Below are positions 10,075-34,837 of a stretch of 64,000 nucleotides of DNA, in pieces. The stretch lies in NCBI GenBank assembly GCA_049651845.1, contig JBASCW010000042.1, forward strand, positions 37,235 to 101,234, read 5' to 3'. A model generated the notes under the pieces. That model had not been told where the DNA came from. It did no database searches and saw only the letters and a list, made by a program, of their open reading frames with translations. Position 1 is the first letter of the stretch. Every line of letters begins with the position of its first letter. The stretch comes from Burkholderiales bacterium. GTDB taxonomy: Bacteria; Pseudomonadota; Gammaproteobacteria; Burkholderiales; SG8-39. A program made the translations under genes and the position numbers.

Positions 10075-10986
10075 TTAGAGGCTGCTCACCAGCACCTGGA
10101 CCTGGCGGTCACGTTGCAGCTTGGGATCACCGAAGCTGCCATATTGGATCTTATACGCCGGCACGCCCGCCTGCAGCAGCGCGTTACGCACGCTGGCGGC
10201 GCGGTCGCTGGTTCCGTCAAGGGCGACGGTGGCGTTCGGGTTCTGGTTCAGGTAGTTCACGATATCGGACACTTTGCTGTATTCCGAAGCACGCAGTTCC
10301 GACCTGTTGGCATCGAACCAGATGTCGCGGTACGGCGACCAGCGGCCGGGAGCGCCGGCAATGCCGCCCGGGCCTTGCTGACCCGTCGCGCCGATCGCGC
10401 CTTGCGGGCCGGTTGCGCCAGTCGCGCCTGTCGGGCCGGCTACGCCCAGCATCTCGGTGTTGCCCCGCGCTCCCGTGAATCCGGTTGCGCCTTGCGCGCC
10501 GGTGGCTCCCGTCGCGCCAACCGGGCCGGTCGGACCTTCGCGGGTCGGGCCTTGCGCGCCCGTGCTGCCGGCCACGCCTCGCAAGCCCGTAGCGCCCGTC
10601 GCACCCGTCGGACCGGCAGGCCCGGCGATGCTGGAGCCTTGCGCGCCCGTGGCGCCCATCGCGCCTTGCGCGCCCGTCGCGCCGGTAGCACCGGTCGCGC
10701 CCGCGCGGCCGACCACCATCTTGCCCTCGCTGCCCGTCGCGCCGACCGGACCTTGCATGCCTTGCGCGCCCGTGGCGCCCGTCGCGCCTGTCGGTCCGGC
10801 CATCGCCGAACCGGCCGCGCCTGTGGCGCCGGTGTAGCCTTGTGCGCCGGTCGCGCCGGTCGCGCCGGTCGGGCCGGCTGGGCCGACGTAGCTCACCGGC
10901 TCATTGGCGGGCTGCGTCGTTGCGCAACCTGCGGCGAACGCGGCGATCACGGCGAGTGACAGCGCGCTTTTCATTGCTGTTTTCAT
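10075..10986 (-). CDS. Collagen-like (G-X-Y repeat) lipoprotein with degenerate OmpA-like C-terminal domain
   Basis: 303-aa ORF; lipobox AAFAAGC (Cys21); aa 35-216 are G-X-Y triplets; C-terminus [10 protein letters not shown]...[34 protein letters not shown] resembles an OmpA C-like domain. Confidence 0.85.
10339..10884 (-). repeat. Collagen-type GXY coding repeat (five 29-codon units plus a longer terminal block)
   Basis: Five blocks of exactly 9 GXY triplets separated by 2-residue breaks (MA, VV, IA, RE), then EML and 12 more triplets; GATGATGAQ recurs. Confidence 0.85.
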
Positions 10987-12974: not shown

Positions 12975-12990
12975 TGTACGCTGGCGTACA
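12975..12990 (+). promoter_or_regulatory. Island box b (TGTACGCTGGCGTACA toward Crp paralog 1), perfect palindrome
   Basis: 12/12 positions; 33 nt from ATG 13024; CTACAT/TACATT at +22..28. Confidence 0.6.
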
Positions 12991-13023
12991 TACGCTGGCG
13001 GCGATGGGTGACTACATTCGGCG

Positions 13024-13719
13024 ATGCTGGAAAACAGTCTGCTGGCCGCGATGCCCCGCCAGGCGAGCCGGCGCATGCTCTCGGGGCTCGAGCCAGTCAC
13101 GCTGGCCTTCGGTGACGTGCTCTACGAGCCCGGACAAGCCATCCGGGATGTCTACTTTCCCGGCGCTTCCCTGGTGTCCTTGCTGACGCTGGCGGACGGG
13201 CATCTGGCGCTCGAAGTCGGGCTGATCGGCCGGGAAGGCATGGTCGGCATACCGCTGATCCTGGGACACAGCCTGTCGCCGGTGCGCGCGCTGGTCCAGG
13301 GCAGCGGGTCGGCGCTGCGCATGGCGGCGGCACCCTTCCGCAAGGAACTGCGGCGCAACCCGGCGCTGCAGCGAGAGCTTTACCGCTACACCTACACGTT
13401 GATGGCGCAGATCTCGCAGACCGCGGCCTGCAACCGCTTTCACGTGGTCGATCAGCGCCTCGCGCGCTGGCTGCTGATGACCCACGATCGCATGAAGTCG
13501 GACCGGTTCCATATGACGCACGAGTTCCTCGGACACATGCTGGGCGTACGTCGGGTCGGCGTCACCAAGGCGGCCCAAACGCTGCAGGCGCGCGACCTGA
13601 TCAGCTACAGCCGCGGCGACATCACGGTACTCGACCGCAAGGGTCTCGAGGCCGCTGCCTGCCAGTGCTATGAGGTCGTCAAGGACATGCACGACGGCAG
13701 GCAGGCTGGCAGCGCATAG
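13024..13719 (+). CDS. Crp/Fnr-family transcriptional regulator (paralog 1)
   Basis: 231-aa ORF; cNMP-binding-like beta-barrel then HTH MLGVRRVGVTKAAQTLQARDLISYSRG; paralogous to 15769..16536 and 34838..35647. Confidence 0.85.
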   Translation: MLENSLLAAMPRQASRRMLSGLEPVTLAFGDVLYEPGQAIRDVYFPGASLVSLLTLADGHLALEVGLIGREGMVGIPLILGHSLSPVRALVQGSGSALRMAAAPFRKELRRNPALQRELYRYTYTLMAQISQTAACNRFHVVDQRLARWLLMTHDRMKSDRFHMTHEFLGHMLGVRRVGVTKAAQTLQARDLISYSRGDITVLDRKGLEAAACQCYEVVKDMHDGRQAGSA

Positions 13720-15626: not shown

Positions 15627-15776
15627 ATGCTTTACATCATCGCCGTCGTTCTTCTCGTCCTCTGGGCACTGGGGTTGGTTTCGGCCTACACCATGGGCGG
15701 ATTCATCCACGTTCTGCTGGTGATCGCAGTCGTGGTCGTCCTGCTCAGACTGATCAGCGGGCGCAGCCCTATCTGA
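15627..15776 (+). CDS. lmo0937-family small membrane protein (49 aa), absent from the ORF track
   Basis: AAGGAGA SD 8 nt upstream; MLYIIAVVLLVLWALGLVSAYTMGGFIHVLLVIAVVVVLLRLISGRSPI matches this family's pattern. Confidence 0.7.
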   Translation: MLYIIAVVLLVLWALGLVSAYTMGGFIHVLLVIAVVVVLLRLISGRSPI

Positions 15777-16536
15777 CGGCGACCGGGATGCTCTGCCGGT
15801 GCCGCACGTCGGAAAGCAGGCGGCCCAGCTCCTTCTTCACCACGCCGTAGCACTCGCAGGCGAGCGTTTCCAGCCCGGAGCGCTCGAGCACCGAAATGTG
15901 GCCGCGCCGGTAGCGGATGTAGCCGGCCTGCTGCAGCTTGCCGGCCGCCTGCGTGATGCCTTCGCGGCGCACACCGAGCATGCTGGCCACCAGTTCCTGC
16001 GTCATCACCAGCTCGCGCGAGGGTATCCGGTCCAGCGTCAGCAGCAGCCAGCGGCACAGCTGCTGCTCTACCGAATGGTGGCGATTGCAGGCGGCGGTCT
16101 GGAACATCTGCGTGATCAGCGCCTGCGTGTAGCGCAACAGCAGGCTGCGCATCAGGCCGGCACGGCTGAATTCGCGCTTCAGCACGTTGCTCGCCAGCCG
16201 GTAGGCGTGGCCCGCGGTCTGCACGACCGCGGAGCTCGGCGTCGTGTCGCCGCCCATGAACAACGAAATTCCGACCACGCCTTCGTTACCCACGCCCGCA
16301 GTCTCCGCAGAAGCGCCGGTCTCCATGACGTAATGAAGCGACACGATGGAGGTGGTGGGGAAGTAGGCATGCTGCATTTGTCCGCCGGGCTCGTAGAGGA
16401 TCATCCCCAGTGGCATTGCAAACAGCTCCAGGTCGGGCGCCAGACGCTCGAACTCGGCGCCGGGCAGCGCGGCAAGCAGGTGATTCTGGTCCGGACTGTG
16501 AGGCGCGGCCACCGCGGGCTGATGGAAGCGCTTCAC
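15769..16536 (-). CDS. Crp/Fnr-family transcriptional regulator (paralog 2), last gene of HK-RR-Crp operon
   Basis: 255-aa ORF; GTG start shares one nt with the upstream stop (TAGTG); HTH MLGVRREGITQAAGKLQQAGYIRYRRG; close paralog of 34838..35647. Confidence 0.85.
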   Translation of the reverse strand: MKRFHQPAVAAPHSPDQNHLLAALPGAEFERLAPDLELFAMPLGMILYEPGGQMQHAYFPTTSIVSLHYVMETGASAETAGVGNEGVVGISLFMGGDTTPSSAVVQTAGHAYRLASNVLKREFSRAGLMRSLLLRYTQALITQMFQTAACNRHHSVEQQLCRWLLLTLDRIPSRELVMTQELVASMLGVRREGITQAAGKLQQAGYIRYRRGHISVLERSGLETLACECYGVVKKELGRLLSDVRHRQSIPVAVR

Positions 16537-17357
16537 TAGCGTTTCGCGCTGACTTCCACGCCGATGCCGCGGTAGCCGATGAAGCGGCTGGAGCGGTTGA
16601 ACATCGGCTCGCCGCTCACCCGGAACTGCTGCTGCGTTCCGTCGGGTTCGACGCGGCTGAAAAGGAAATCCAGGAACGGCTGCCGCGCCGCGATCGTCGC
16701 CTGCAGCTCCTCGCGCTGCGCCTCGTTCCAGCCCGTCATCAGGGCGCCGTTCGAATCGCCCGCGAGAGAGCCGACGCGCAGGCCGAGCATTTCCAGCACC
16801 GGGCCGGAAACCTTGGTGAAATTCCCTGCTTCGTCCTGCTCCCAGTACCAGTCGGAGGCGAGTTCGGTCAGGCTGCGGTAGCGCGCTTCGCTCTCGCGCA
16901 GTTCGGCGGTTCGTTCCAGAACCGTCTGCTCGAGTGCCTTGCTGTAGTTTTCGAGCTTCCGGTAGAGCAGCCGCACTTCGAGCATGTTGCGGATGCGCGT
17001 CCTGACCTCCACCAGGTCGAAAGGCTTGCTGATGAAGTCCTTCGCGCCGGCCTGCAGCGCGCGCAGCTTGTGGCCGGGTTGCGCGGTGAGAACCAGGACC
17101 GGCAGGTAGGCATCGGCGTCGTTGGTCTTGAGCGCTTCGATCACCTGGAATCCGTCCATGCCGGGCATCTGCAGGTCGAGCAGGATCAGGTCGTAGCAGT
17201 TCCGGCGGTGCAACACGCAGACTTCCAGCGGGTCTATGGTCGAGCTGACGCTGGTGTAGCCGGCCTCGCGCAGCATCTGCCCCAGCAGGCTGATGTTCAC
17301 TTCCTGGTCGTCGACGATCAGGATGCGGGCGTTCAGGATCTCGGATTCGGCAATCAT
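16536..17357 (-). CDS. Response regulator: receiver domain + coiled linker + PAS domain (no DNA-binding output)
   Basis: 273-aa ORF; ILIVDDQ...DLILLDLQMPGMDG...KPF receiver motifs, then SEARYRSLTELASDWYWEQDEAGNFT PAS-like; ATGA overlap with the HK stop. Confidence 0.85.
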   Translation of the reverse strand: MIAESEILNARILIVDDQEVNISLLGQMLREAGYTSVSSTIDPLEVCVLHRRNCYDLILLDLQMPGMDGFQVIEALKTNDADAYLPVLVLTAQPGHKLRALQAGAKDFISKPFDLVEVRTRIRNMLEVRLLYRKLENYSKALEQTVLERTAELRESEARYRSLTELASDWYWEQDEAGNFTKVSGPVLEMLGLRVGSLAGDSNGALMTGWNEAQREELQATIAARQPFLDFLFSRVEPDGTQQQFRVSGEPMFNRSSRFIGYRGIGVEVSAKR

Positions 17358-19030
17358 TGTGCTTGTGCCCCTGCCGCCGCGGCGCTTGATGCGGTTTTCG
17401 AGCCGCTGAGTGCTCTGTCCAGCGCGTTCATGAACTCGTCGACCTTGATCGGCTTGGTGAGATAGTCGAAGAATCCGGCCTCGAGCGCGCGTGCGATGTC
17501 GCGCGGGACCGCGTTGGCGCTGAGTGCGATGATCGGGATATGCATCGTGGCGGGGTCCGCGCGCAGGATTTTCATGGCTTCGATCCCGCTGATGCCGGGC
17601 AGGTTGATGTCCATCAGGATCACCTTCGGCTGGCAGGCGCGCGCAAACTCGATTCCGAGGCTGCCGTCCGCGGCGCTGAGCATGCGCAGGTCAGGCCGGC
17701 GTGCGACCAGCTGCTCGACCAGCTCCAGGTTGGCTGGATTGTCCTCGACGTAGAGCACGGTGCGCAGCGGCGTGCCGTCCGGCACCTGCGCTCGCTCTAC
17801 AGCCGCCCCGGCCGCTTGCAGGACCGCGAGCTGAGGCGCCGGCGCCAGGGCCAGCTCGAACCAGAACACGCTGCCTTCGCCAACCACGCTGTCGACGCCG
17901 ATCGCGCCGCCCATGAGACCCACCAGCCGCTTGCTCACCACCAGGCCGATGCCCGTGCCTTCCTCGGTGCTCGCTTCCTTGCCGAGGCGGTTGAAGGGCT
18001 GGAACAGCTGCGCCACCTGTTCCGGCGACAGGCCCGCGCCGGAGTCGCGGATGCCGATGCGGATCGTGCCCGGGGGCTTGTGGGCGCATTCCACGGCCAC
18101 CGCGCCGCCCGGCTTGTTGTACTTGATCGCGTTGAACAGCAGATTGATCAGCACCTGCTTGACCCGGGTGCGGTCCGCCTTGACGAAGTTGGGCGTGTCG
18201 AAGCGCGGAAACGTCATGCCGATGTCGCGCTTCTGCGCTTGCGGCTCGATCATCGCCCGGCACTCGAGCATGACCTCTGCCAGCGAGACCGGCTCGCTCG
18301 ACAGGGTCAGCTTGCCCGACTCGATCAGCGCCAGATCGAGGATCTCGTTGATCAGCTCCAGCAGGTACCAGCCGGCCTTGAGGATCTGGTCGAGGTTGCG
18401 CTTCTGCGAGAGCGTCGGCGCGGGCGTACCGGTCGCCATCAACTGGGCGAAGCCGAGGATCGCGTTCAGCGGCGTGCGCAGCTCATGGCTCATGCCGGAG
18501 AGGAAATCGGACTTCGCCCGGCTGGCCGTCTCGGCCGCCGCCATGGCCTCGTTCAGCTTGGACTCGACGCGTTTGCGCACCGAGTTGTCGCTGCCGATCA
18601 GCAGATAGCCGATGATCTTGCCGAATTCGTCGCGCAGACCCGTGATCGACACGATCGCAGGAAAGCGGCTGCCATCCTTGCAGACATAAGTCAACTCATA
18701 GGTGTCTGCGATGCCGCGCGATGCCTTGTAGGCGAGCGCCTCGAATCCCGGCGCGATCGGGGTGCCGAGCTCCAGGCTCAGGGCCTGGGCACGCGCCGCA
18801 ACTTCCAGCGGGTCGTGCATGTCGCTCGGGCTGATCCGGTCCACGACCTCGGCGGCGGCGTAGCCGAGCATGCGTTCGGCGCCGACGTTGAACAGCTGGA
18901 TGATGCCCTTCTCGTCGGTCGCGATGATCGAAAAATTGGCGCTGGTGAGGATCGCGTACTGCAGGGCGCCCGTCTTCAGCAGCGCCCGCTGGCGCCTCGC
19001 CTCTGTAGCGCCGATTTCCGGTGTGGCCAT
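17354..19030 (-). CDS. Hybrid sensor histidine kinase (PAS-HisKA-HATPase-REC)
   Basis: 558-aa ORF; H-box SHELRTPLNAILGF, N/G boxes (NAIKYNKPGG, DSGAGL, GTGIGL), C-terminal receiver VLYVEDNPANL...ILMDINLPGISG. Confidence 0.9.
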   Translation of the reverse strand: MATPEIGATEARRQRALLKTGALQYAILTSANFSIIATDEKGIIQLFNVGAERMLGYAAAEVVDRISPSDMHDPLEVAARAQALSLELGTPIAPGFEALAYKASRGIADTYELTYVCKDGSRFPAIVSITGLRDEFGKIIGYLLIGSDNSVRKRVESKLNEAMAAAETASRAKSDFLSGMSHELRTPLNAILGFAQLMATGTPAPTLSQKRNLDQILKAGWYLLELINEILDLALIESGKLTLSSEPVSLAEVMLECRAMIEPQAQKRDIGMTFPRFDTPNFVKADRTRVKQVLINLLFNAIKYNKPGGAVAVECAHKPPGTIRIGIRDSGAGLSPEQVAQLFQPFNRLGKEASTEEGTGIGLVVSKRLVGLMGGAIGVDSVVGEGSVFWFELALAPAPQLAVLQAAGAAVERAQVPDGTPLRTVLYVEDNPANLELVEQLVARRPDLRMLSAADGSLGIEFARACQPKVILMDINLPGISGIEAMKILRADPATMHIPIIALSANAVPRDIARALEAGFFDYLTKPIKVDEFMNALDRALSGSKTASSAAAAGAQAQ

Positions 19031-19057
19031 GAAGATTGCTGCCTTGCGAAGTCGAGC

Positions 19058-19081
19058 AAAAGCCGCGCCTCACGCGAGGCG
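19058..19081 (-). terminator. Hairpin + TTTT between SOD locus and HK operon (SOD terminator and/or 5' stem-loop of the HK mRNA)
   Basis: Minus strand GCCTCGC-GTGAG-GCGCGGC then TTTTG; starts at the +1 predicted from box i. Confidence 0.35.
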
Positions 19082-19115
19082 ACCTTGCACCATGGCGCTT
19101 TGCCTGGCCGGCGTC

Positions 19116-19131
19116 TGTGCGGCTGCGCACA
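19116..19131 (-). promoter_or_regulatory. Island box i (TGTGCGCAGCCGCACA toward HK-RR-Crp operon)
   Basis: 11/12 positions, 6-4-6 palindrome; GAC then CATGGT at +22..27. Confidence 0.55.
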
Positions 19132-19144
19132 TAGCGGGCCGGAT

Positions 19145-19983
19145 TCAGGGCGACGGGCAGGGCGCCTCGAAGCGGCGCGCCGCGTCGGACCAGTCGACGA
19201 CGGTCCACCACTGCTTCAGGTAGTCGCCGCGGCGGTTCTCGTAATTCAGGTAGTAGGCGTGTTCCCAGACGTCGTTCACGAGCAGCGGGTACTGGCCCTG
19301 CACGAGGGGATTGCCGTGCCCGAAGGTGGTCAGGATCTCGAGCCTGCCGTCGTTGTGCTGCGACCGGGTCAGCCAAATCCAGCCCGAGCCGAAGTAGTTC
19401 GCGCCCGCATCCTAGAATTGCGACTTGAACCGCTCGAAGCTGCCGAATTCGTCGTTGATCGCAGCGGCCAGCGCACCCGTGGGCGCGCCGCCCCCGTCGG
19501 GTGACATGGCGCGCCAGAACAGGCTGTGATTGACGTAGCCGCCGGCATTGTTGCGGATCGCCGCCTGCGCGGCATCAGGGATGCGGATGAGATTGAGCAG
19601 CAGCCAGGCCGCCGAACGCTGGTGCGGATCCGGATACTGCTCGATCGCCGAGTTCAGCTTCTTCACGTACGACGCGTGATGCTTGCCGTGATGCAGCTGC
19701 ATGGTGCGCGCGTCGATGTGCGGCTCCAGCGCGTCGTGCGCGTAGGGCAGGGCCGGGAGCAGGTGCTTCGCGCAAGGTTCCACTAGATCGTCCATCTGGG
19801 CGCCGATGCGGGCGGGCTGGCGTAGTGCTCGGTCGGCGCAGGCGACGGCATGGGCTTGCGCTTGTCGGGCACCGCGCCGCCCGCAGCGCCACGCGCAGGC
19901 GGCACATAGGCCGACTGATGGATCGCCGCCGCGGTGGCGGCGGGTACCAGCAGGAGCAGCGCAAGGATGACCGCGTGTTTCAT
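19145..19983 (-). pseudogene. Fe/Mn superoxide dismutase, disrupted (in-frame TAG at 19412-19414; signal-peptide ORF in a different frame)
   Basis: LPALPYAHDALEPHIDARTMQLHHGKHH...FKSQF*DAGANYFGSGWIWL...DVWEHAYYLNYENRRGDY; the 66-aa MKHAVILALLLLVPAATAAA ORF (19783-19983) overlaps the SOD ATG (19795) out of frame. Confidence 0.6.
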
Positions 19984-20016: not shown

Positions 20017-20032
20017 TGTGCGTTGTCGAACA
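20017..20032. promoter_or_regulatory. Island box j (TGTGCGTTGTCGAACA), equidistant from two divergent ATGs
   Basis: 10/12 positions; 33 nt to ATG 19983 (-) and 33 nt to ATG 20066 (+); GACAAT and TAAATA at +22..27. Confidence 0.55.
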
Positions 20033-20366: not shown

Positions 20367-20477
20367 ATGGCCAAAGGTCAGCTCAGAAGCAACCGCGAGA
20401 AGAAGAAGCCCAAGCAGGCCAAGAAGCCCGTGATCCCGCCTTCGCCGTTCAGGCTGCCGGCGCCAAAAGCTCGATAG
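20367..20477 (+). CDS. Possible small basic protein (36 aa), low confidence
   Basis: MAKGQLRSNREKKKPKQAKKPVIPPSPFRLPAPKAR; not in the track; overlaps the 3' end of the convergent glucan synthase gene by 29 nt. Confidence 0.3.
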   Translation: MAKGQLRSNREKKKPKQAKKPVIPPSPFRLPAPKAR

Positions 20478-23400
20478 GCTGCCGGCGCAGCGTCACCTCG
20501 ACCTGGTGTTCGGCCCGGTCGTCGACGAGCGCTATCGTCGAGTCCGCCTGCAGGACGCCGTCCACGCTCACTGTCATTGCGGCGTCGCCGCCGGTGGCCT
20601 GGCGCAAGGCGATGCGGTACATGGTTTCCTTGTGGCGGTAGCGCAGTTCGAGCCCCTGCCAGTCGGCGGGCAAGCACGGTGCGAAATGCAGCTTGTCCGC
20701 GGCCAGCCTCAGACCCAACAGCGATTCAAGGATCAGCCTGTACATCCAGCCGGCCGAGCCGGTGTACCAGGTCCAGCCGCCGCGCCCGGTATGAGGCGGA
20801 ACCGCATAGACGTCGGCGGCGACGACATAGGGCTCCACTTTGTAGACGGCGATCCCCTCGGGCGTGTCGCCGTGGTGCAGGGGGTTGATCATGTCGAGCA
20901 GTTCCCAGGCCCGCACCGCATCGCCCTGCGCGGCAAATGCCATCGACGCCCAGATCGCCGCATGCGTGTACTGCCCGCCGTTCTCCCGCACGCCGGGCAC
21001 ATAGCCGCGGATGTAGCCTGGATCCAGCTCGGAGCGATCGAACGGCGGATCGAGCAGCTGCACGAGCGCGTGGTCGCGGCGCACCAGCCGCTGATCCAGC
21101 GCGTTCATCGCCAGCTTGGAGCGCTCGGGGGTACCCGCGCCGGACAGCACGGACCAGCTTTGCGCGATGGAATCGATCTGGCATTCGGCGTTGGCCGCGG
21201 ATCCCAGCGGCGTGCCGACATCGAAATAGGCGCGGCGATACCAGCCGCCGTCCCAGGCGTGCGCTTCGATGTTCCTGCGCAGGCGGACGGCTTCGCTCTC
21301 GCAGCGCTCGGCGAATGGTGCGTCGTTCTCGCCGCGCGCGAGCACGGCGAACTGCGTGAGCACCTGATACAGAAAGAAGCCGAGCCAGACGCTCTCGCCC
21401 CTGCCCTGCGCGCCCACCAGGTTCATGCCGTCGTTCCAGTCGCCCGAGCCCATCAGCGGCAGGCCGTGGAATCCCATGCGCAGGCCGTTCTCGATGGCCC
21501 GTACGCAATGCTGATACAGGCTCGCCGCTTGCAGCGAGCGCAGCGGCAGGTCGTAATACGAATCCTCGTCGGCATTCACGGGGCGACCGTCGAGAAACTG
21601 GATCTGCTCCTTCAGGACTGCGCTGTCCCCGGTGCAGGAAACGTAGCGGCAGGTCGCCAGCGGCAGCCACAGATAATCGTCGGAGCAACGCGTGCGCACG
21701 CCGCGCCCGGAAGGCGGGTGCCACCAGTGCTGGACATCGCCCTCGAGGAACTGGCGGGATGCGCACAGCAGCAAATGCTCGCGCACCAGCTGCGGAGACG
21801 CATGAACCAGGGCCATGACGTCCTGCAGCTGATCGCGGAATCCGAACGCGCCACCCGACTGGTAATGGCCGCTGCGCCCCCACAGGCGGGACGCCATCGT
21901 CTGGTAGAGCAGCCAGCCGTTGCAGAGCACGTCGAGCGACGGATCGGGCGTCTCGATCTGTACGACGCCTAGCGTGGTCTTCCAGTACTGCCGGACCGCT
22001 TCCAGCGCCACGCTCGCGGTGCTGGACTTGCGCAGGCGCTGCACCAGGCGGCTCGCGTCGTCGGTGCCGCGCCCGACGCCCAGGCGGAAGATGATCTCGC
22101 GCGACGATCCGTCGGCGAGGTCGAATGGGACCTGGATCGCGGCGCAGGGGTCCATGGCGGCGCCCACCCTGCCGGAAAGCCGTGCGCGCTCGAGGGCGGC
22201 CGGATTGCGCAACGTGCCATTGCGCCCGATGAACTCGGTGCGATCGCCGCTGAGGGTGCGCGTCACGTCGTCCACGTCGAAGAATGCAACCTGCTCCCCG
22301 AACTCCGGGTTGTAGGCGTTGCGCGCGAGCAGCGCGCCGCTGTTGGGATCGATCTCGGTGACCACGTGCATGCTCGATTTCGATCGCAATGCGCCCAATA
22401 CCCACTCGACATAGCCGGTTGCGGAGAGCCGGCGCGGCCGGCCCGAGCCGTTGCGCACCTTGAGGACCGCGAATTTGACCGGCGAATCGAGGTCCACGTA
22501 CACCGTCAGCTCGGTGGCGATGCCGCCCTCGCTGTGCTCGAAGACGCTGTAGCCGAAGCCGTGCCGGCTGACGTAGTTGCCCGTTCCGGGGCAGGGCAGC
22601 GCGGTCGGCGACCAGACCTGCCCGGTCTCTTCATCGCGCAGGTAATAGGCTTCGCCGCTGGCATCCCCGACCGAATCGTTGTGCCAGGGGCTGAGGCGGA
22701 ACTCGTGCGCGTTCTCATGCCAGGTGTAGGCCGCGCCGCTTTCGGAGATCACGCAGCCGAAATGCGGATTGGCCAGTACGTTGACCCAGGGTGCCGGGGT
22801 CGCCTGCGCAGTCGTCGTCGTGATCACGTATTCGCGCCCGTCGGGCGTGAAACCGCCCAGTCCGTTGGCGAGGGCCAGCTCGCGAGGCGGCACGGCGGCC
22901 TCGTCCGCAGCGGCGGCACCGCGCGCCGTTTCAGCTGCGCGCAGGCGGCTGGCGGCAAAGGGTGCCATGGCGGCTTCGACCTCGGGGCGCTGCTTGACCT
23001 GCTCCTTGAGGGTCCCCTGGCTGTCGGTGAACACGGCGCGGGCGACCGACTGCAACAGGATGCGGTCCTCGTTCGAGATCTGTTCGGCGGATCGCACGAA
23101 GATTCCGCCCGGCCGGTCGATGACGTGCGCTTCCACCCCGGCGGCGATCAGCCCCATGATCTGGTCGTGCAGCAGCTGGCGGTAGCCGCCCCGCTCCTCG
23201 TTCCAGATCACCAGGTCCACGGCCAGTCCCTTCAGACGCCAGTAGGCGTGGGCCTGCACCAGCTGGCGTACCAGCTCGATGTTGGCGGGGTCCCTCAACT
23301 GCACCAGCACGATGGGCAGGTCCCCCGAGATCGCGTAGCCCCACAAGCCGGACTGCCCGCGGCGGTTCTTGGCGATGACGCTCGCTTCGGCGCGCAACGA

Positions 23401-26400
23401 GGCATTGGCGTAGATGATCGAGCTGGCCAGGCGCCCGTAGAGCTGCGCTTCGGCCTCGGTGACGTTGATCTGTCGTAGCGCGACCTGGCTGTGCGTCCAT
23501 GCCATTTCGAATGCGCGGTCGGCGAGGCGCCGATCCTGGTATTTCTCCACCAGCTGGAGGCAGCCCGCGCGGCTGTCGCCGACGCCGATGACCAGGTCCA
23601 GCGTGGCCGTCTGCGCCGGCTCGAGGGTGACGCGCTGCCGGATGGCGACGATCGGGTCAAGCACCGAGCCCTCGCTGCCCGAGAGCGGAGCGGGATCGCG
23701 CAGCGCCTGCGGCGCGGCGACGCTGTTGCCGCGGCCGACGAAGCGAGCGCGGTCCGTCTCGTAGGAAACGGCCTCCACTTCTGCGCCATGCACCGCCATC
23801 AGGTGCAGCATCCACGGTGTCGTCTCGCCGCGCGAGCGCGGCCGGCGCGTGCACAGGATCGCCTGGCGCGCGGCAATGATCTCGGTCTGCACGAACAGGC
23901 TGCTGAACGCCGGATGGAGCGCGTCGGCGGAGGGGGAGGCGAGCACCACCTCCGCATAGCTGGTCACTTCGATCGTGCGGCGCGATCGCGAACGGTTGGT
24001 GACGCGTACCCGGCGCAGCTCGATATCATCCTCCGGCGACACCACGATCTCGGTATGCGTGTCGAAGTTCGCGTCGTGGCGGCGGAATTCCACGCGCTGC
24101 TCGGTGAAGATCGCCTCGTAGGATTCGGTACGCTTGAGCGCAGGCTGAAGCGCGCAAGACCAGACCTGGCCGCTCGCGGTGTCGCGCAGGTAGCAGAACG
24201 AGCCCCAGTTGTCGGCGGTGCTGTCCTCGTGCCAGCGCGTGACGGCGAGGTCCTTCCAGCGGCTGTAGCCGCCGCCGGCGTTCGTGATCATCACGTTGTA
24301 GCGGCCATTGGAGAGCAGTTGCACGCCCGGGATCCTCGTATCCGGCGTGCTGAAGACGCGCATCGGCATCTCGGGAATCTCCGCGACAGCGCGAAAATCG
24401 ATCCATTCGGGAATCGTCGAGTACGACGCCGTGGCCCTCGGCACCCGCTCCTGCAGCAGCAGCAGGGTCGCCTGGAAGAGCGGATCCGAGACGAAGCGCC
24501 GCTGCATCGGCCGGTCGAGCAGGACGTGGGACAGGGCGAGGAAGCTCATGCCCTGGTGGTGGGCCATGAACGAACGCACGACCGCGCTGGTCTCCGCGCG
24601 GCGCAGGCGCGCGGGCGTGTAGTCGATCGCCTCGTAGAAGCCGAATTTGCCTAGCAGGCCGTCGGCCGCGAGCCGCTTCAGGTTGGCGCACGCCGCCTCG
24701 GGCGCGACCATCAGTGCGAGCGCCGTGGCATACGGCGCGATCACCAGGTCCTCGCTCAGGCCGCGCTTGAGGCCGAGGCCCGGAACGCCGAAAGCACGGT
24801 ACTGGTAATTGAGCGCTGCATCGACCGTGTTGTACCCGCACTCCGACATGCCCCACGGCACGCCGCGTTGCGCGCCATAGTCGATCTGGCGCCGGACCGC
24901 TGCGCGGCAGCTCTCATCGATCAGCGTGTTCTCATAGCTGGGCATCACCAGCAGCGGCATCAGGTACTCGAACATCGAGCCGCTCCAGGACAGCAGCGTC
25001 GCTCCGCTGCCCGCGTTGGTGAGCAGCCGTCCGAGCGCAAACCAGCTCTGCTGCGGCAGCTGCCCCTGGGCGATGGCGACGAAACTGGTCAGGCGCGCTT
25101 CCGATGCGAGCAGGTCGTAGTAGCTGGCATCGCGCCTGCGCTCGGTCGCGTGGTGTCCGCGCCTGCGCTCGGTGACGTTGTGCCCGATCATCAGCAGATG
25201 CCGCACGTCGTCGTACAGGAAGTTGTAATCCATGCGTGCCATTTCGCCCGCCTGCAGGGCGAGTTGCGCGATTTCCTCCATGCGTGCGCGCGCGGCGGAA
25301 ACGCCTCGCGCAGCCAGCTCGCGCAGCGTGGGTATGCCGTGCTCGCCCGGCATCGCGGAGGGCGGCGCCAGCAGGCGCAGTTCGCCCAGGGCATCCCGGC
25401 ACTGGCGATCGAGCGCGCGTACCCAGGCGGCGTGCTCTGAATCCGATTTCTCTCCCAGCTCTGCCAGCACCAGTGCGGCGTCCTTCGCCAGCGCATCGAG
25501 CATCCGTCGCGAGGCAGCGAGCGTGGCTGGGCGGTCCGCCAGCGCCGATTCGAGCTGATGCCGGAAACTGCGCAGCGCATTCGTGGACGCCGCTGGCGCG
25601 CAAGCGTGTAGCGCGTGAAGGGTGTCTTCCAGGCCTTCCCGCCAGCGCGCCGCGAGGATGGGCTGATCGGCCAGCGCGGCGATGCCCGGCCGCAGCGTCA
25701 GCAGGTGGCCCGCCAGGTTGCCGCTGTCGACCGTGGAAACGTACATCGGCAGCAGCGGCAGCAGCGAGGCGGTATCGTACCAGTTGTAGAAGTGGCCGCG
25801 GTAGCGTTCCAGCTTGTGCATTGTCGCGAACGCATTGCGCGTACGCTCGATGAGCGTGCCTGCGGACACATAGCCGAAATCGTACGCCGAGAGGTTCGCG
25901 AGCAAAGACAGCCCCATATTCGTGGGGGAGGTGCGGCGGGCGAGCGCCGTGGCTGGACTCTCCTGGTAGTTGTCCGGCGGCAGCCAGTGGTCTTCCGGCC
26001 CTACGAAGGTCTCGAAGAAAGCCCAGGTCTTGCGGGAAACCAGGCGCAGGAACGAGATCTGCTCCGGGGAGAGTACCGCCTGCGGTCGCTCAAGCGGCCG
26101 GCCCAGCCACCAAGCGAGCAGCGGAGACGCGAGCCACAGGAGCAGGATCGGAACGGCCACCGCCAACGCTCCGGGGCGCACCTGCAAGAGGTACACCGCC
26201 GTGCTGATCGCCACGATCGGCGCGATCCACATCTGGCGTAGGGAATCCGTAAAGCGGCCGCCGGGATCGAGCTCGCTCGAGGCCGTCCACTCGAGTAGGT
26301 GCCGGCGCGTGATGAGGACGCGCACCGAGGTGCGCAGGATCGCGTCCAGGCTGGTGCTGGCCTCAAAGGGCAGGCAGGCGAACGTGAACACCGTCTGCGC

Positions 26401-29130
26401 GAGGCGCGTTCCCGCAGCGCGCATGGCCCCGACCAGATGCTGGCGCAGCGAGGCATCGTCCGGCTTGCGAAACAGCTCCACCATCCAGGCGCACGCCGCG
26501 GGAATCAGCAGCACCGCCAGCACGGCCGCGGTCCAGAGCCAGGCGGGCGACAGGAGCGCCCAGCCAAGCAGCAGCAGCAGGGTGAGGGCCGGGGCGACCA
26601 GGCTGCGGCGCAGGTTGTCGAGGATCTTCCACTGCGACAGGCCGGAGAGAGGATTCTTCTGCGTGCCGCCATCGCCCGCGGCAACGCGCCGGCGCAGCCA
26701 GCCGAGCAGCTGCCAGTCGCCGCGCATCCAGCGGTGCCGCCGGGCCACATCGGCGCTGTAGCGGGCCGGATACTGCTCGTAGAGTTGCACGTCGCTCGCC
26801 AGGCCGGAGCGCGCATAGCATCCTTCCAGCAGATCGTGGCTGAGGATGCGGTTGTCCGGGAAACGACCCTTCAGCGCCCGCTCGAATGCTTCGACGTCGT
26901 AGATGCCCTTGCCGATGAACGAGCCTTCGCCGAACAGATCCTGGTAGACATCGGAAACCATGCGTGTGTACGGATCGATGCCGGCTTCCTCGCCGTGCAG
27001 CTGGGCATAGCGCGTGCGGTTGCTGTCCGCCACGCTCACCGCCACGCGCGGCTGCAGTATTCCGTAGCCTTGCGTCACGCGTCCGCTCGCCTCGTCGTAC
27101 CGCGCGCGATTGAGCGGATGCGCCATCGTGGCCGCGAGCAGGCGCGCCGAGTCGCGCGGCAGCTGCGTGTCGCTGTCCAGCGTGATCACGTATCGCACGC
27201 CGGACAGGACGGCGGTGCGGCCGACCACGCGCGAGAATGCGCCAGGCGCGCCGCCGCGCAGCAGCGCATTCAGATCGCCCAGCTTGCCGCGCTTGCGCTC
27301 GCGGCCCATCCAGACGCCCTCGCGCGGGTTCCAGAGGCGCGGACGATGGAGCAGGAAGAAGACATCGCCGTCCCCCGCGCCTGCGTCGCTGCGGTATTTG
27401 TCATTCAACGCCGCGATGCGCTGCGCCGCCAACTGCAGCAGCGGCTCGTCCTGGGGCAGCGTTTCAGCGTGCGCATCGGCAAAATCCGTGAGCAGGCAGA
27501 ACCGAAGGTGCTCGTCGCGGTTGCCGAGGAAGCGGACCTCGAGCGACTCGACCAGATCCTCGACGTTCTGCGTGCTGTGGATGAGCGTCGGCACCACGAC
27601 CAGCGTCTGCGCGTCCGGCGCTATGCCCTTGGCGAAATCCAAGCGCGGCAGCACCTTCGGCGCCACCAGCAGCGTTGCCAGCCAGTTCACCAGGGCCACT
27701 GCGAGTTGGCTGGTGGCGAGCAACGCCAGCATCCCGCAAAGCACCAGGAACCAGCCCCGCGCCCCGCCGGCATGGGCCTGCGCAAGCAAGGCCCCGGTGA
27801 AGGCCGCCGTGATCAGCAGGATCGGGCCGAGATAGAGGTAGCGGCGGCGGACGCGCCGCAAGCGAAGGGAAAGGGGAACCCGCATCCGGGTCGCCTCTTC
27901 CAGCTGCCGCAGCCCTGTGTCGAAGAGGTAGAAACCGACATGTCTTGCCCGCTCGTCGCCGTCGCTGCGCGCCGCGGCTTCCTGCGCGAGCTGAACGCAG
28001 CGGCGCGCCGCCTGTTCCTCGGCGAGTCCGCTGCGCCTGGCGATCTTCTCCAGCACGTGGCGATAGTGGTCGCGGGTGGCGAAGTCCATGCGGCCGTACA
28101 CGCCGCCGGGGTCCTCGCGCAGAATGCTCTCGACGACGCTCATCGACTCGACGAAGGCATGCCAGTCGGTCGCGGCCAGCAGGCGCAGGCTGCCGATACT
28201 GTTGCTGATCGACACCTGGTCGGCCGCCTGCTGCTGGTTCTCCGCCTGCACCAGCTGCTCGATGGAAAGGCCCAGTTCCGAGAGCCGCTGCTCGATCCAG
28301 TTGAGCGGCATGGCCAGCGCCGCGCTCTGTCCTTGCAAGCGGCGCGCAAGTTCCGCCACGAATGGACCGCTCATGGGCGGGTTGGAACGCGCCATGTCCG
28401 CGACCACCAGGATCAGGCTCTTGGGGTCGTTCTGGGTGGTCTCCATCATCTCGCCCGCCCAGAAATCGGCCAGGTCCCGGCCTCTGCGGTGAGCGATGAT
28501 GCGGGTTGCGACGCGGCGCAGGTTCTCGATCAGCGCCAGGCGCAGCATGATCGGCACGGCCCACAGTTCGCCGAGGGTCAGATGGGTGACGGTCTGGTAG
28601 GCGCTGATGAAGCGGCCGAAGCTGTCGGGATCCATCTGCCCGTCGCCATGGGAAATGGTCTCCAGGGCGATGTCATAGACGCGCGGCAGTCCGGCCGACG
28701 GCCCATTGTCCAGGCGCGGCAGCTCCCGGCTGTAATCCCTGGGCAGGTGCCGCCTCGCGGTGCGGATCTGCTCCTCGATCAGGTGGAAGTTGTCCAGCAG
28801 CCATTCGCCGGCGGGCGTGCTTGCGCGTCCGTCCTTGATCGCCGCTGTGAGCAGGTCGCAGGCTTCGAGCAGCACGCCCTGGTTTTCCGCAAGGCGCGCG
28901 AGCAGCAGGTCGCGGGTGCGCCTTGCCCCCAGCGCGTGCGAGGCCGCCAGCGCCTTGCCGTACTGCTCCATCTGGTCGGCGCTGAACAGCTCGGAGCGCA
29001 GCGGCGGCTCTTCGACGGGGTGATCCGCGGTCCAGCCGCCGCGCCGGAACAGCGTCAGTGACTGGAGCAGGATTCGCGCAAGGAAGTTGCCGCTGCTTTT
29101 CAGTGGTCCTGCCTCATGCGATGCCGGCAA
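20449..29130 (-). CDS. ndvB: Cyclic beta-1,2-glucan synthase (NdvB/ChvB/Cgs type: GT84 glycosyltransferase + TM region + GH94 phosphorylase)
   Basis: 2893-aa ORF, the size and architecture of this family; N-terminal PLRSELFSADQMEQYGKALAASH, DSDTQLPRD and RHRWMRGDWQLL GT motifs, TM helices, long C-terminal GH94-like region; TTG start, no SD. Confidence 0.9.
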   Translation of the reverse strand: MPASHEAGPLKSSGNFLARILLQSLTLFRRGGWTADHPVEEPPLRSELFSADQMEQYGKALAASHALGARRTRDLLLARLAENQGVLLEACDLLTAAIKDGRASTPAGEWLLDNFHLIEEQIRTARRHLPRDYSRELPRLDNGPSAGLPRVYDIALETISHGDGQMDPDSFGRFISAYQTVTHLTLGELWAVPIMLRLALIENLRRVATRIIAHRRGRDLADFWAGEMMETTQNDPKSLILVVADMARSNPPMSGPFVAELARRLQGQSAALAMPLNWIEQRLSELGLSIEQLVQAENQQQAADQVSISNSIGSLRLLAATDWHAFVESMSVVESILREDPGGVYGRMDFATRDHYRHVLEKIARRSGLAEEQAARRCVQLAQEAAARSDGDERARHVGFYLFDTGLRQLEEATRMRVPLSLRLRRVRRRYLYLGPILLITAAFTGALLAQAHAGGARGWFLVLCGMLALLATSQLAVALVNWLATLLVAPKVLPRLDFAKGIAPDAQTLVVVPTLIHSTQNVEDLVESLEVRFLGNRDEHLRFCLLTDFADAHAETLPQDEPLLQLAAQRIAALNDKYRSDAGAGDGDVFFLLHRPRLWNPREGVWMGRERKRGKLGDLNALLRGGAPGAFSRVVGRTAVLSGVRYVITLDSDTQLPRDSARLLAATMAHPLNRARYDEASGRVTQGYGILQPRVAVSVADSNRTRYAQLHGEEAGIDPYTRMVSDVYQDLFGEGSFIGKGIYDVEAFERALKGRFPDNRILSHDLLEGCYARSGLASDVQLYEQYPARYSADVARRHRWMRGDWQLLGWLRRRVAAGDGGTQKNPLSGLSQWKILDNLRRSLVAPALTLLLLLGWALLSPAWLWTAAVLAVLLIPAACAWMVELFRKPDDASLRQHLVGAMRAAGTRLAQTVFTFACLPFEASTSLDAILRTSVRVLITRRHLLEWTASSELDPGGRFTDSLRQMWIAPIVAISTAVYLLQVRPGALAVAVPILLLWLASPLLAWWLGRPLERPQAVLSPEQISFLRLVSRKTWAFFETFVGPEDHWLPPDNYQESPATALARRTSPTNMGLSLLANLSAYDFGYVSAGTLIERTRNAFATMHKLERYRGHFYNWYDTASLLPLLPMYVSTVDSGNLAGHLLTLRPGIAALADQPILAARWREGLEDTLHALHACAPAASTNALRSFRHQLESALADRPATLAASRRMLDALAKDAALVLAELGEKSDSEHAAWVRALDRQCRDALGELRLLAPPSAMPGEHGIPTLRELAARGVSAARARMEEIAQLALQAGEMARMDYNFLYDDVRHLLMIGHNVTERRRGHHATERRRDASYYDLLASEARLTSFVAIAQGQLPQQSWFALGRLLTNAGSGATLLSWSGSMFEYLMPLLVMPSYENTLIDESCRAAVRRQIDYGAQRGVPWGMSECGYNTVDAALNYQYRAFGVPGLGLKRGLSEDLVIAPYATALALMVAPEAACANLKRLAADGLLGKFGFYEAIDYTPARLRRAETSAVVRSFMAHHQGMSFLALSHVLLDRPMQRRFVSDPLFQATLLLLQERVPRATASYSTIPEWIDFRAVAEIPEMPMRVFSTPDTRIPGVQLLSNGRYNVMITNAGGGYSRWKDLAVTRWHEDSTADNWGSFCYLRDTASGQVWSCALQPALKRTESYEAIFTEQRVEFRRHDANFDTHTEIVVSPEDDIELRRVRVTNRSRSRRTIEVTSYAEVVLASPSADALHPAFSSLFVQTEIIAARQAILCTRRPRSRGETTPWMLHLMAVHGAEVEAVSYETDRARFVGRGNSVAAPQALRDPAPLSGSEGSVLDPIVAIRQRVTLEPAQTATLDLVIGVGDSRAGCLQLVEKYQDRRLADRAFEMAWTHSQVALRQINVTEAEAQLYGRLASSIIYANASLRAEASVIAKNRRGQSGLWGYAISGDLPIVLVQLRDPANIELVRQLVQAHAYWRLKGLAVDLVIWNEERGGYRQLLHDQIMGLIAAGVEAHVIDRPGGIFVRSAEQISNEDRILLQSVARAVFTDSQGTLKEQVKQRPEVEAAMAPFAASRLRAAETARGAAAADEAAVPPRELALANGLGGFTPDGREYVITTTTAQATPAPWVNVLANPHFGCVISESGAAYTWHENAHEFRLSPWHNDSVGDASGEAYYLRDEETGQVWSPTALPCPGTGNYVSRHGFGYSVFEHSEGGIATELTVYVDLDSPVKFAVLKVRNGSGRPRRLSATGYVEWVLGALRSKSSMHVVTEIDPNSGALLARNAYNPEFGEQVAFFDVDDVTRTLSGDRTEFIGRNGTLRNPAALERARLSGRVGAAMDPCAAIQVPFDLADGSSREIIFRLGVGRGTDDASRLVQRLRKSSTASVALEAVRQYWKTTLGVVQIETPDPSLDVLCNGWLLYQTMASRLWGRSGHYQSGGAFGFRDQLQDVMALVHASPQLVREHLLLCASRQFLEGDVQHWWHPPSGRGVRTRCSDDYLWLPLATCRYVSCTGDSAVLKEQIQFLDGRPVNADEDSYYDLPLRSLQAASLYQHCVRAIENGLRMGFHGLPLMGSGDWNDGMNLVGAQGRGESVWLGFFLYQVLTQFAVLARGENDAPFAERCESEAVRLRRNIEAHAWDGGWYRRAYFDVGTPLGSAANAECQIDSIAQSWSVLSGAGTPERSKLAMNALDQRLVRRDHALVQLLDPPFDRSELDPGYIRGYVPGVRENGGQYTHAAIWASMAFAAQGDAVRAWELLDMINPLHHGDTPEGIAVYKVEPYVVAADVYAVPPHTGRGGWTWYTGSAGWMYRLILESLLGLRLAADKLHFAPCLPADWQGLELRYRHKETMYRIALRQATGGDAAMTVSVDGVLQADSTIALVDDRAEHQVEVTLRRQPIELLAPAA

Positions 29131-29264: not shown

Positions 29265-29280
29265 TGTACGCTAGCGCACA
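29265..29280 (-). promoter_or_regulatory. Island box d (TGTGCGCTAGCGTACA toward glucan synthase leader)
   Basis: 12/12 positions; GAC then CATCAT at +22..27; 6 nt after the upstream gene's stop codon. Confidence 0.6.
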
Positions 29281-29286: not shown

Positions 29287-30402
29287 CTAGATGGCAACGA
29301 GTGCGCCGTTTTCAATCCTGACCCGGCTGCCGACGCTGAATGCGGGCTGTGCGGGGTAGGAAACCGTTTGCGAGCCGCCGTTCTCCAGGCGCACCACCAA
29401 GTCGAAGTGCTTGGTGGATTTCATCTTTTTCTCGATTTCATTGCCGGCCCAGGCACCGCCCGCGGCGCCGGCGATCTGGGCCACGGTGGTGCCCGTGCCA
29501 TGGCCGACCTGGCTGCCGAGCAGCGCGCCGACCACGCCGCCGCCGATCATGCCGATATAGCTGCCGTCGCCCTTGACCTCGACCACGTTGATCGCCTCGA
29601 CCACGCCGCAATTGGGACAGATCTGGCGCGCGGCGGGCGCCGGTGCCGCCGCCTGGCGGCCAGTCGTGCGCTGCCGTGCGGATGAGCTGTCGACCAGCGG
29701 CTTGCCAAGGACCTTGCTGTGCTCCTGCTGGCCGATGCGCAGGTTCCCCGTGACGACCGCATTGGTTGCGATCCTGTCGCGATTCCTGATGGTGTACGCA
29801 CCCTCGTAGGCGCCGGCCCTGACTTCCTCCAGGTTGATCTTGCCGCGGACGCCGTTGATCCTGACGCTGGCGTTGCCGCTTGGGCTGCCCTCGAGAGCGA
29901 AAACGAGTTCCGAGCCCGGCGTGAGGCTGCGCGGCGGATCCACGTTGAAGAGGTTGATTTCCGGGACGCTGTTCGCGGCCGCCGAACCGCCCGGCCAGCG
30001 GAAGCCGGAGCCCTTCACCAGCGATTCGTCGAGAACGCTGCTGGCCACCTGATTGCCCCGGCGCAGATTGGCCGTGGCGGTGCTGTCCTCGGTGATCTGG
30101 TCGCGCCGGGTGATGGTGTAGATGCCTTCGTAGACGCCGGCTTCGATTTCTTCCAGGATCAGGCTCCCGGTCGCTCCGCCGATGCGCACGGTCGCGGTAC
30201 CAGCGGGGCTGCCGTAAAGCGTGAACACGAGCTCGCTGCCGGCGACCGGCTTCGCGGTGGGTACGACATCGAAGCCATCGATTCTGGGAGCCGCGTTCTG
30301 CGACGCGGACTGCTGCGCCAGCACGGTGTTCGAAGGGAGCGCCAGTGGCAGGAACGCTGCCAGTGCGAGGAGGGTTGCGCCGAGTCCGTGGTTTAGGTTC
30401 AT
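29287..30402 (-). CDS. Secreted protein: two tandem ~90-aa beta-rich repeats + CxxC/glycine-zipper 2TM module
   Basis: 371-aa ORF; signal peptide; repeats aa 39-127 and 147-236 (GSELVFxLxGSPxGxAxVRIxG...EEhxAGxYEGxYTI); C-terminus CPNCGVV...GGGVVGALLGSQVG...GNEIEKK. Confidence 0.75.
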   Translation of the reverse strand: MNLNHGLGATLLALAAFLPLALPSNTVLAQQSASQNAAPRIDGFDVVPTAKPVAGSELVFTLYGSPAGTATVRIGGATGSLILEEIEAGVYEGIYTITRRDQITEDSTATANLRRGNQVASSVLDESLVKGSGFRWPGGSAAANSVPEINLFNVDPPRSLTPGSELVFALEGSPSGNASVRINGVRGKINLEEVRAGAYEGAYTIRNRDRIATNAVVTGNLRIGQQEHSKVLGKPLVDSSSARQRTTGRQAAAPAPAARQICPNCGVVEAINVVEVKGDGSYIGMIGGGVVGALLGSQVGHGTGTTVAQIAGAAGGAWAGNEIEKKMKSTKHFDLVVRLENGGSQTVSYPAQPAFSVGSRVRIENGALVAI

Positions 30403-30435: not shown

Positions 30436-30451
30436 CGTACGCTATCGCACC
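30436..30451 (-). promoter_or_regulatory. Island box e (GGTGCGATAGCGTACG toward 30402)
   Basis: 9/12 positions; 33 nt from ATG 30402; GAC then AAAGAT at +22..27. Confidence 0.5.
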
Positions 30452-30574
30452 GATCGCTCTGCGACCGGCTCAATGGAAAACCCGTGCAAAGGCGCGCTCG
30501 CTCAGCAACTCGCGTGCTTCAGGTTGTTCGTCAGTGAGACAGCGCGCAACTTGGCCCGATGAACCGGCAGTTTC

Positions 30575-34812: not shown

Positions 34813-34837
34813 GTTGCCTTCGGGAGGCGGGGTAGAA

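Follow-up and report, generated by a model that had tools for sequence, protein, structure and literature searches.

How might a two-component system act on transcription through a response regulator that has no DNA-binding domain of its own? This question is raised by three neighboring genes in a 64,000-nucleotide (nt) stretch of DNA from a Burkholderiales bacterium (assembly GCA_049651845.1, contig JBASCW010000042.1, positions 37,235-101,234), hereafter called the window. They encode a hybrid histidine kinase, a response regulator composed of a receiver (REC) and a PAS domain, here named REC-PAS, and a regulator of the Crp/Fnr family, here named the operon Crp. The three genes constitute one operon that has been kept across Beta- and Gammaproteobacteria. 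By sequence comparison the unit is tied to a new DNA box and a stress regulon, and it may reasonably be inferred that REC-PAS links the kinase to Crp. The genes are the following:

17354-19030, minus strand: hybrid histidine kinase, 558 amino acids, with the Pfam domains PAS, HisKA, HATPase_c and Response_reg
16536-17357, minus strand: REC-PAS response regulator, 273 amino acids, with REC, a coiled coil and a putative C-terminal PAS domain
15769-16536, minus strand: Crp/Fnr-family regulator of the two-component-system-linked clade C, 255 amino acids as the open reading frame from GTG 16536, or 247 amino acids from GTG 16512

The kinase, REC-PAS and Crp genes form one conserved operon

The kinase is a soluble protein whose HisKA and HATPase_c domains scored 66.8 and 85.4 bits in Pfam, respectively; its H-box reads SHELRTPLN, and the Asp of its receiver lies within VILMDINLPG. 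Kinase orthologs are 50-78% identical and contain one to four PAS domains of one type, or a CHASE3 domain instead. In REC-PAS, Response_reg reached 91.7 bits, and the residues D16, D17, D61, T91 and K111 were invariant across 29 homologs. The two adjacent genes thus supply the H-box His, the ATPase domain, the acidic pocket, the phosphoacceptor Asp, the Thr and the Lys by which a two-component system is recognized. The putative C-terminal PAS domain of REC-PAS scored 22.0 bits (Pfam cut-off, 22.6), and PAS_9 scored 21.8 bits (cut-off, 27). In the AlphaFold model of REC-PAS (predicted local distance difference test [pLDDT], 77) the receiver is followed by a single helix (residues 115-166) and a five-stranded PAS-like fold (strands at residues 168-174, 180-184, 229-236, 242-253, and 259-268), with pLDDT values below 50 at residues 161-167 and 189-208. 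The helix, a coiled coil of about 50 residues, joins REC to PAS. A DNA-binding domain was absent from REC-PAS both in Pfam and in the model, in agreement with the initial annotation of this DNA, in which a PAS domain took the place of a DNA-binding output. No similarity was detected between the PAS domain of the kinase and that of REC-PAS.

In the case of the operon Crp, HTH_Crp_2 scored 47.4 bits (cut-off, 27), and cNMP_binding, the cyclic-nucleotide domain, scored 25.1 bits, below its cut-off of 27.5. The AlphaFold model (pLDDT, 79) contains a beta-barrel, a helix at residues 128-151 and a helix-turn-helix motif at residues 180-203, and Foldseek matched it to GlxR, FNR, CRP, NtcA and Clr with a probability of 1.0 at 13-22% identity. 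The protein belongs to the Crp/Fnr superfamily. Searching the Protein Data Bank (PDB) by sequence gave remote matches alone (E ≥ 1e-4), and NCBIfam holds no specific model for the operon Crp or for either of its two paralogs in the window; the kinase and the response regulator matched generic NCBIfam families alone, far under the cut-offs. A neighbor-joining tree of 64 Crp sequences comprised clade A (the type of the stand-alone paralog at 13024), clade B (the type of the stand-alone paralog at 34838) and clade C, which takes in every kinase-linked Crp, whichever the gene order.

At the first junction of the operon the start codon of REC-PAS overlaps the stop codon of the kinase gene (ATGA at 17357-17354). 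The initial annotation had also joined REC-PAS and Crp by an overlap, TAGTG at 16538-16534. Both motifs are indeed present on the minus strand, but the second one is probably not the junction in use: in about 40 orthologous junctions the start codon of Crp aligns with GTG 16512, and we therefore assume a protein of 247 amino acids and a 23-nt spacer between the stop codon of REC-PAS and this GTG. Most orthologs have spacers of 20-30 nt, and a few truly overlap. The operon genes remain tightly packed even with this start.

We scanned 185,579 species genomes, one genome per species, and found at least 592 loci encoding a relative of REC-PAS. Most of them are from Betaproteobacteria (Burkholderiales, Rhodocyclales, Nitrosomonadales, and Hydrogenophilales) and some from Gammaproteobacteria (Steroidobacteraceae, Lysobacterales, Methylobacter, and Chromatiaceae). 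Gene order was counted in 80 retained loci, 61 of which have a full-length REC-PAS. Crp lies directly downstream of REC-PAS in about 37 of these 61 loci and directly upstream of the kinase gene in about 9; one locus has the order REC-PAS, Crp, kinase. Among cultured bacteria, the order Crp, kinase, REC-PAS occurs in Rugamonas rubra ATCC 43154, Undibacterium umbellatum, Sulfuriferula multivorans TTN and Duganella sp. CF517. When the search was anchored on Crp instead, using 80 metagenome loci that encode a near relative of the operon Crp, REC-PAS was found immediately upstream of it in 73 of the 74 informative loci; in the remaining one, the kinase gene follows downstream. Of the 85 loci with room for one, 74 have a kinase gene directly in front of REC-PAS. 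Conservation of the triplet had been proposed at the outset as a check on the unit, and these counts, together with the three gene orders, show that it is a conserved one. The Crp proteins are 65-89% identical across orders. More than 8000 protein clusters at 90% identity were found for Crp and likewise for REC-PAS, and a full search of 1.84 billion representatives assigned 3864 representatives of 50%-identity clusters to the Crp subfamily (E ≤ 1e-30).

A palindromic box with fixed promoter geometry

The initial annotation had placed the three open reading frames behind a box, and a perfect palindrome, TGTGCGGCTGCGCACA at 19116-19131, does precede the kinase gene. It is located 14 nt past the stop codon of a superoxide dismutase (SOD) gene, and its center is 93 nt upstream of the kinase ATG. 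The elements of this promoter are as follows:

19114-19133, minus strand: box upstream of the operon, with the core TGTGCGCAGCCGCACA at 19131-19116 in the minus-strand reading, within an extended palindrome
19089-19094, minus strand: predicted -10 hexamer CATGGT, at an offset of 37 from the start of the box

From these positions the operon transcript is predicted to start near 19081, which would put the center of the box at about -41.5.

In the window, the sequence TGTRCG-N4-CGYACA occurs in four exact copies (0.02 expected) and in seven copies with at most one mismatch (0.82 expected), the expectations being taken from first-order Markov simulations. All of these copies fall between genes, in the region from 12.9 to 34.8 kb; they face stress genes and the three Crp paralog genes. 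In a promoter pool of 1.37 Mb, made up of the window and 165 related loci, we counted 73 distinct exact copies of TGTNCG-N4-CGNACA, compared to roughly 1.5 estimated by chance. In 61 of the 73 copies a NANNNT hexamer begins exactly 37 nt past the first base of the box, i.e., 29.5 nt from its center, compared to about 5 at other offsets. Because the hexamer sits at a fixed offset, the center of the box comes to lie at about -41.5, as in class II Crp/Fnr promoters, and the box promoters fit the geometry of a class II activator as judged by the predicted -10 elements and start sites. A -35 consensus or element was not seen in the aligned box promoters. The aligned sites extend the palindrome to 20 bp (T-N-TGTNCG-N4-CGNACA-N-A). 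In 15 of 40 orthologous loci the kinase gene is preceded by a box that has no more than one mismatch, and TGTTCG/CGAACA variants of the box occur in other orthologous loci. Taken together, we regard the conserved operon, the box and the promoter geometry as established with high confidence.

Two base preferences were noticed in the 61 oriented box promoters: the base before the -10 hexamer (position -13) is C in 32 of them, which is reminiscent of sigma-S-dependent promoters, and 48 have a G next to the box toward the promoter. A leader hairpin or terminator between the box and the ATG (about 19063-19085) was considered and rejected, as the fold energy was no better than that of shuffled sequences (z = -0.45) and a pattern scan gave no excess. 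An Rfam scan of the window from 12 to 36 kb yielded no matches.

The other boxes of the window and the genes linked to them are listed here; those without a strand are given by position alone:

12903: weaker second box, facing a BON-domain gene
12975-12990, plus strand: box TGTACGCTGGCGTACA in the promoter of the clade A Crp paralog
13013-13018: predicted -10 hexamer TACATT of the clade A Crp gene, ending 5 nt short of its ATG
13024-13719, plus strand: stand-alone Crp paralog of clade A, 44% identical, recognition helix RRVGVTKAA
15557-15572: degenerate box at the DUF5670 gene, with a GATGAT hexamer at class II distance
15627-15776, plus strand: DUF5670 small membrane protein, convergent with the operon Crp gene
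19145 to about 19825, minus strand: Fe/Mn SOD gene
20017-20032, minus strand: box TGTGCGTTGTCGAACA, facing the Fe/Mn SOD gene, with a GACAAT hexamer at class II distance
20449-29130, minus strand: cyclic-glucan-synthase-like gene, 2893 amino acids, with GT2, glucoamylase-like and GH94 parts, of the cyclic beta-1,2-glucan synthase type
29265-29280, minus strand: strict box TGTACGCTAGCGCACA, facing the GT2 and GH94 cyclic-glucan-synthase-like gene
30436-30590: two weaker boxes with two mismatches each, less certain; the box at 30436 faces a glycine-zipper gene (29287-30402, minus strand), and the box at 30575 faces a glycine-rich gene (30645-31154, plus strand)
31477-31492, plus strand: box TGTACGGTGGCGTACG of an entericidin-family lipoprotein gene (31548-31697)
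33471-33486, minus strand: box facing an RcnB/DUF1236-like gene with the likely start ATG 33437
34797-34812, plus strand: perfect box TGTGCGATAGCGCACA in the promoter of the clade B Crp paralog, with a TAGAAT -10 hexamer at 34833-34838
34892-35647, plus strand: stand-alone Crp paralog of clade B, 67% identical, recognition helix RREGVTEAA, likely start TTG 34892

An OmpA-like gene is also among the box-faced genes, and CsbD is among the box-preceded stress genes. The two stand-alone paralogs had already been reported in the initial annotation with the same recognition helices and with starts at 13024 and 34838, and both were recovered. The start of the second is more likely TTG 34892, because the TAGAAT hexamer covers 34833-34838; this TTG is preceded by a good ribosome-binding sequence, AAAGGTGAG. 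The mRNA of the clade A paralog may be leaderless, since its -10 hexamer ends 5 nt before the ATG.

Some further observations concern the neighborhood. The DUF5670 gene (49 codons for amino acids) overlaps the 3' end of the operon Crp gene convergently by 8 bp, and the same pairing was found in loci L001 and L085. The SOD gene contains an in-frame TAG at 19412-19414 (minus strand) between the regions for its N- and C-terminal domains. In L085 the orthologous gene reads GAG (Glu) here and is intact with 232 amino acids; the TAG is either a nonsense mutation or an error of the assembly consensus. The gene for the 2893-residue GH94 protein is linked to the module in L085 as well. Collagen-repeat proteins are also encoded near the module in L085; in the window, the gene at 10075-10986 (minus strand) encodes a 303-residue protein with collagen triple-helix repeats and an OmpA-like domain. 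Neighbors common to three annotated contigs are DUF883, YqjK, BON, CsbD, glycine-zipper and DUF3096 proteins, SOD, an AI-2E transporter and the giant GH94 protein.

A proposed route from the kinase to Crp

The initial annotation had suggested a phosphorelay that feeds into Crp by partner switching or by control that is independent of a ligand. In its strict His-Asp-His-Asp form such a relay is unsupported, as no HPt domain was found in the 558-residue kinase, in the operon, or in the Pfam lists for about 10 kb around it in the annotated loci L002, L083 and L085. In four orthologous kinases nothing follows the ATPase domain, and the receiver is missing. Because of these two observations, direct His-to-Asp transfer from HisKA to REC-PAS appears more likely than a four-step relay.

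What the operon Crp itself responds to was considered by comparison with the classical members of its superfamily. An assignment as CRP proper was rejected, as the canonical phosphate-binding cassette is missing and the box is TGTNCG-N4-CGNACA rather than TGTGA-N6-TCACA. In CRP proper the cassette spacing is 10 residues (CRP numbering); in clade C, 17 residues separate the Glu from the Arg position, which is not canonical, and this position is occupied by Ser (PSSA), whereas the paralogs, including clade B (PSRA), have Arg. FNR binds a [4Fe-4S] cluster by three Cys near the N-terminus and a further one in the barrel. An assignment as FNR was rejected because the N-terminus of the operon Crp, MKRFHQPAVAAPHSPDQNHLL, is free of Cys and the conserved Cys residues are at positions 150, 227 and 229. 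An assignment as FixK was rejected because the adjacent response regulator has no DNA-binding domain and the box differs. The earlier proposal that the classical cyclic nucleotide, O2 or NO inputs do not apply here is supported by the absence of the FNR Cys cluster, by the Ser in place of the cassette Arg and by the sub-threshold cNMP_binding score.

All three paralogs have a Cys-x3-His...Cys-x-Cys signature (C150, H154, C227, and C229 in the operon Crp), which is near-invariant in the subfamily. In a sample of 150 distant representatives of clusters at ≤50% identity, C150 was conserved in 147 of 151 sequences, H154 in 149 of 151, C227 in 140 of 145, and C229 in 135 of 144. In the Crp model, the dimerization helix ends with C150, the hinge contains H154, and an extra C-terminal helix starts with C227 and C229. 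To judge from sequence position, the four residues may come together in a metal or redox site at the hinge, where the dimerization helix passes into the DNA-binding domain.

A small ligand was also considered as the input. Crp might bind c-di-GMP (cyclic di-GMP) or a cyclic mononucleotide made by a sibling REC-GGDEF or REC-cyclase protein, as Clp or Bcam1349 do, with REC-PAS acting as a competing phosphate acceptor. Several loci indeed have the order kinase, REC-GGDEF, REC-PAS, Crp, and REC-cyclase and REC-HD-GYP siblings occur; in L083 a GGDEF gene is directly upstream of the kinase gene, Crp-PAS-GGDEF fusions exist, and clade B retains the Arg at the aligned cassette position. However, the operon of the window contains no cyclase, most loci are devoid of a GGDEF sibling, and the cassette features and the cNMP_binding score described above speak against nucleotide binding by the operon Crp. 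We consider this second-messenger route improbable.

A PAS domain as the sole output, without a catalytic function, implies that REC-PAS needs a protein partner, and the clade C Crp is the candidate singled out by linkage. Natural fusions of the Crp subfamily to a coiled coil plus PAS, to a PAS-histidine kinase, to PAS-GGDEF and to a CheB methylesterase were found (proteins P0387, P0316, P0247, P0289, P0284, and P0360). One of the fusion proteins, Crp-PAS3 with 676 amino acids, forms a cluster of 10 members, has been seen on up to 66 contigs (Rhodocyclales and other Betaproteobacteria) and has NCBI records, which rules out a gene-calling artifact. The last PAS domain of Crp-PAS3 and the preceding helix match the PAS region of REC-PAS weakly (23% identity, pairwise E = 5e-6). 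The fusions lend indirect support of the Rosetta-stone type to the idea that Crp and PAS domains act together; this falls short of proving a contact between REC-PAS and Crp. Partner switching, or any other contact of the two proteins, is a tentative proposal that we judge somewhat less likely than not.

On this basis we favor, as somewhat probable, a control module in which the whole chain runs from the kinase via REC-PAS and Crp to a box-driven stress regulon. The cytoplasmic PAS domain of the kinase would sense an intracellular cue, and the kinase would phosphorylate Asp61 of REC-PAS directly, its own receiver being a competing or modulating site and not a relay step. Phosphorylation might shift the register of the coiled coil and hence the arrangement of the PAS dimer; the PAS domain would then bind or release the Crp dimer and thereby set its activity. 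Active Crp would bind the boxes and recruit RNA polymerase; its own operon would thereby be expressed more strongly in a positive feedback, the two paralog genes in a feed-forward step, and with them the stress genes. A metal or redox signal may enter in addition by way of the conserved Cys-x3-His...Cys-x-Cys site that the three paralogs share.

Several points weigh against this chain. About 13 of the 61 REC-PAS loci have no Crp gene in their flanks; the genes downstream of REC-PAS in these loci are unrelated and mostly convergent, and no alternative transcription factor was found among them. The module of receiver and coiled coil (60-70% identical) is fused elsewhere to GGDEF, HD-GYP, sigma-54 AAA+, adenylate/guanylate cyclase, PP2C or kinase domains, and these fusions lie downstream of the same PAS-kinase family (L006, L017, L032, L036, L043, L045, L054, and L061-L082). 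The kinase family is thus a general input device with modular outputs, and REC-PAS could act on a target other than Crp. Furthermore, the tight linkage could stem merely from Crp autoregulating an operon that happens to hold a two-component system.

These points lead to an explanation in which the genes are co-regulated and mechanistically separate: Crp would sense a signal of its own, either by the Cys/His site (metal or redox) or by a small ligand in the beta-barrel, and would autoregulate the operon, while REC-PAS would act elsewhere, for example in feedback on the kinase or on another partner. The box in front of the operon makes it conceivable that autoregulation alone favored co-transcription, the near-invariant C150, H154, C227 and C229 offer an independent input, and besides the REC-PAS loci without an adjacent Crp there are the stand-alone paralogs, which share fold and signature with the operon Crp although no kinase gene adjoins them. 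On the other hand, the orthologous Crp clade is linked to REC-PAS in 73 of 74 loci, and this linkage has outlasted three gene orders, which is unusual for a mere member of a regulon. The natural Crp-PAS fusions, and a PAS-only output that has no known enzymatic activity and needs a protein partner, also argue against a separate role. We therefore judge mechanistic separation to be unlikely, though it deserves serious consideration.

Returning to the chain from kinase to Crp, the paralogs bear on how far it may reach. In the recognition helix, clades B and C read RREG(I/V)T(E/Q)AAG and clade A reads RRVGVT; the dimerization helix, too, hardly differs between B and C. Because both helices are nearly identical in B and C, common boxes and even mixed dimers are conceivable among these paralogs. 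All three paralog genes carry the same box, and its hierarchical or heteromeric control by the paralogs, as suggested earlier, may be considered. In the most far-reaching version of the proposal, phosphorylated REC-PAS would be a co-activator or anti-activator of a Crp protein with a Cys3His site which, together with the two paralogs, would form a three-tier master switch of the general stress response in soil Beta- and Gammaproteobacteria; we put this forward as a possibility that is, as a whole, less likely than not.

Significance and comparison with known systems

In full-text literature searches we found no paper that describes the box, the proteins or the triplet; a preprint on a Cupriavidus two-component system was set aside, as it deals with a LuxR-type regulator and is unrelated. 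If the coupling is true, it would represent a new mode of Crp/Fnr control, with a response regulator as the protein partner, so that a two-component system would act on a Crp/Fnr protein directly and post-translationally. In bacteria abundant in soil and freshwater, a general-stress gene set (OsmY-like, CsbD, entericidin, glycine-zipper, SOD, and cyclic glucan) would then have its regulators named. The box and the fixed promoter geometry permit regulon prediction from sequence alone, and the Cys-x3-His...Cys-x-Cys signature is a clear target for biochemistry.

FixLJ-FixK, known from rhizobia and Burkholderia, has a similar cast, as a PAS kinase, a response regulator and a Crp/Fnr activator without a classical ligand operate in one pathway with a stress regulon. 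An oxygen cascade of this type would require a heme-PAS kinase that phosphorylates a regulator inducing a ligand-free Crp/Fnr protein. Over 38 residues at its N-terminal end, the PAS domain of the kinase has a weak similarity to FixL (E of about 0.05), but this similarity stops short of the heme-binding region and is too little to call the domain heme-binding or FixL-like. The FixLJ-FixK/lxa regulon of Burkholderia includes stress proteins (PMC6127331) and serves here as an analogue alone. In contrast to FixJ, which binds DNA and induces fixK, the response regulator described here has no DNA-binding domain and ends in PAS, and the Crp gene is part of the operon, co-transcribed with the system and not induced by it. 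The box TGTNCG-N4-CGNACA is also unlike the FixK/Fnr box, TTGAT-N4-ATCAA. We regard an oxygen cascade of the FixLJ-FixK type as very improbable.

The cyanobacterial NtcA-PipX-PII system resembles the proposed one in that a Crp-family activator is set by a small protein that swaps between two partners, and its structures 2xko and 9guk were among the fold matches of the operon Crp. Unlike here, PipX does not belong to the response regulators, the system works without a histidine kinase, and NtcA binds 2-oxoglutarate; beyond the Crp fold, NtcA and the operon Crp have no sequence relationship (about 20% identity). In PhyR-NepR-EcfG of Alphaproteobacteria and RssB-RpoS of Enterobacteria, non-DNA-binding response regulators control the master regulator of the general stress response by protein contacts, and CsbD, BON/OsmY, entericidin and glycine-zipper proteins liken the regulon content to that of these systems. 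There, however, the master regulator is a sigma factor and the output of PhyR and RssB is sigma-like or PP2C-like, whereas here it is a Crp-family activator at class II promoters and the output is PAS. SdrP of Thermus thermophilus (PDB 2zcw) is an effector-independent Crp/Fnr protein that regulates genes of the stationary phase and of oxidative stress; it is not known to work with a two-component system and lacks the Cys3His signature, and its sequence match to the operon Crp is weak (E = 0.004) and confined to the helix-turn-helix. The receiver of REC-PAS is closest to that of PleD (E = 7e-32), and a long alpha-5 helix leading from the receiver to the output domain is also found in WspR and DgcR; in contrast to WspR, PleD and DgcR, the output of REC-PAS is a PAS domain without catalytic activity. 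None of the systems compared unites a two-component system, a REC-PAS regulator and a co-transcribed Crp.

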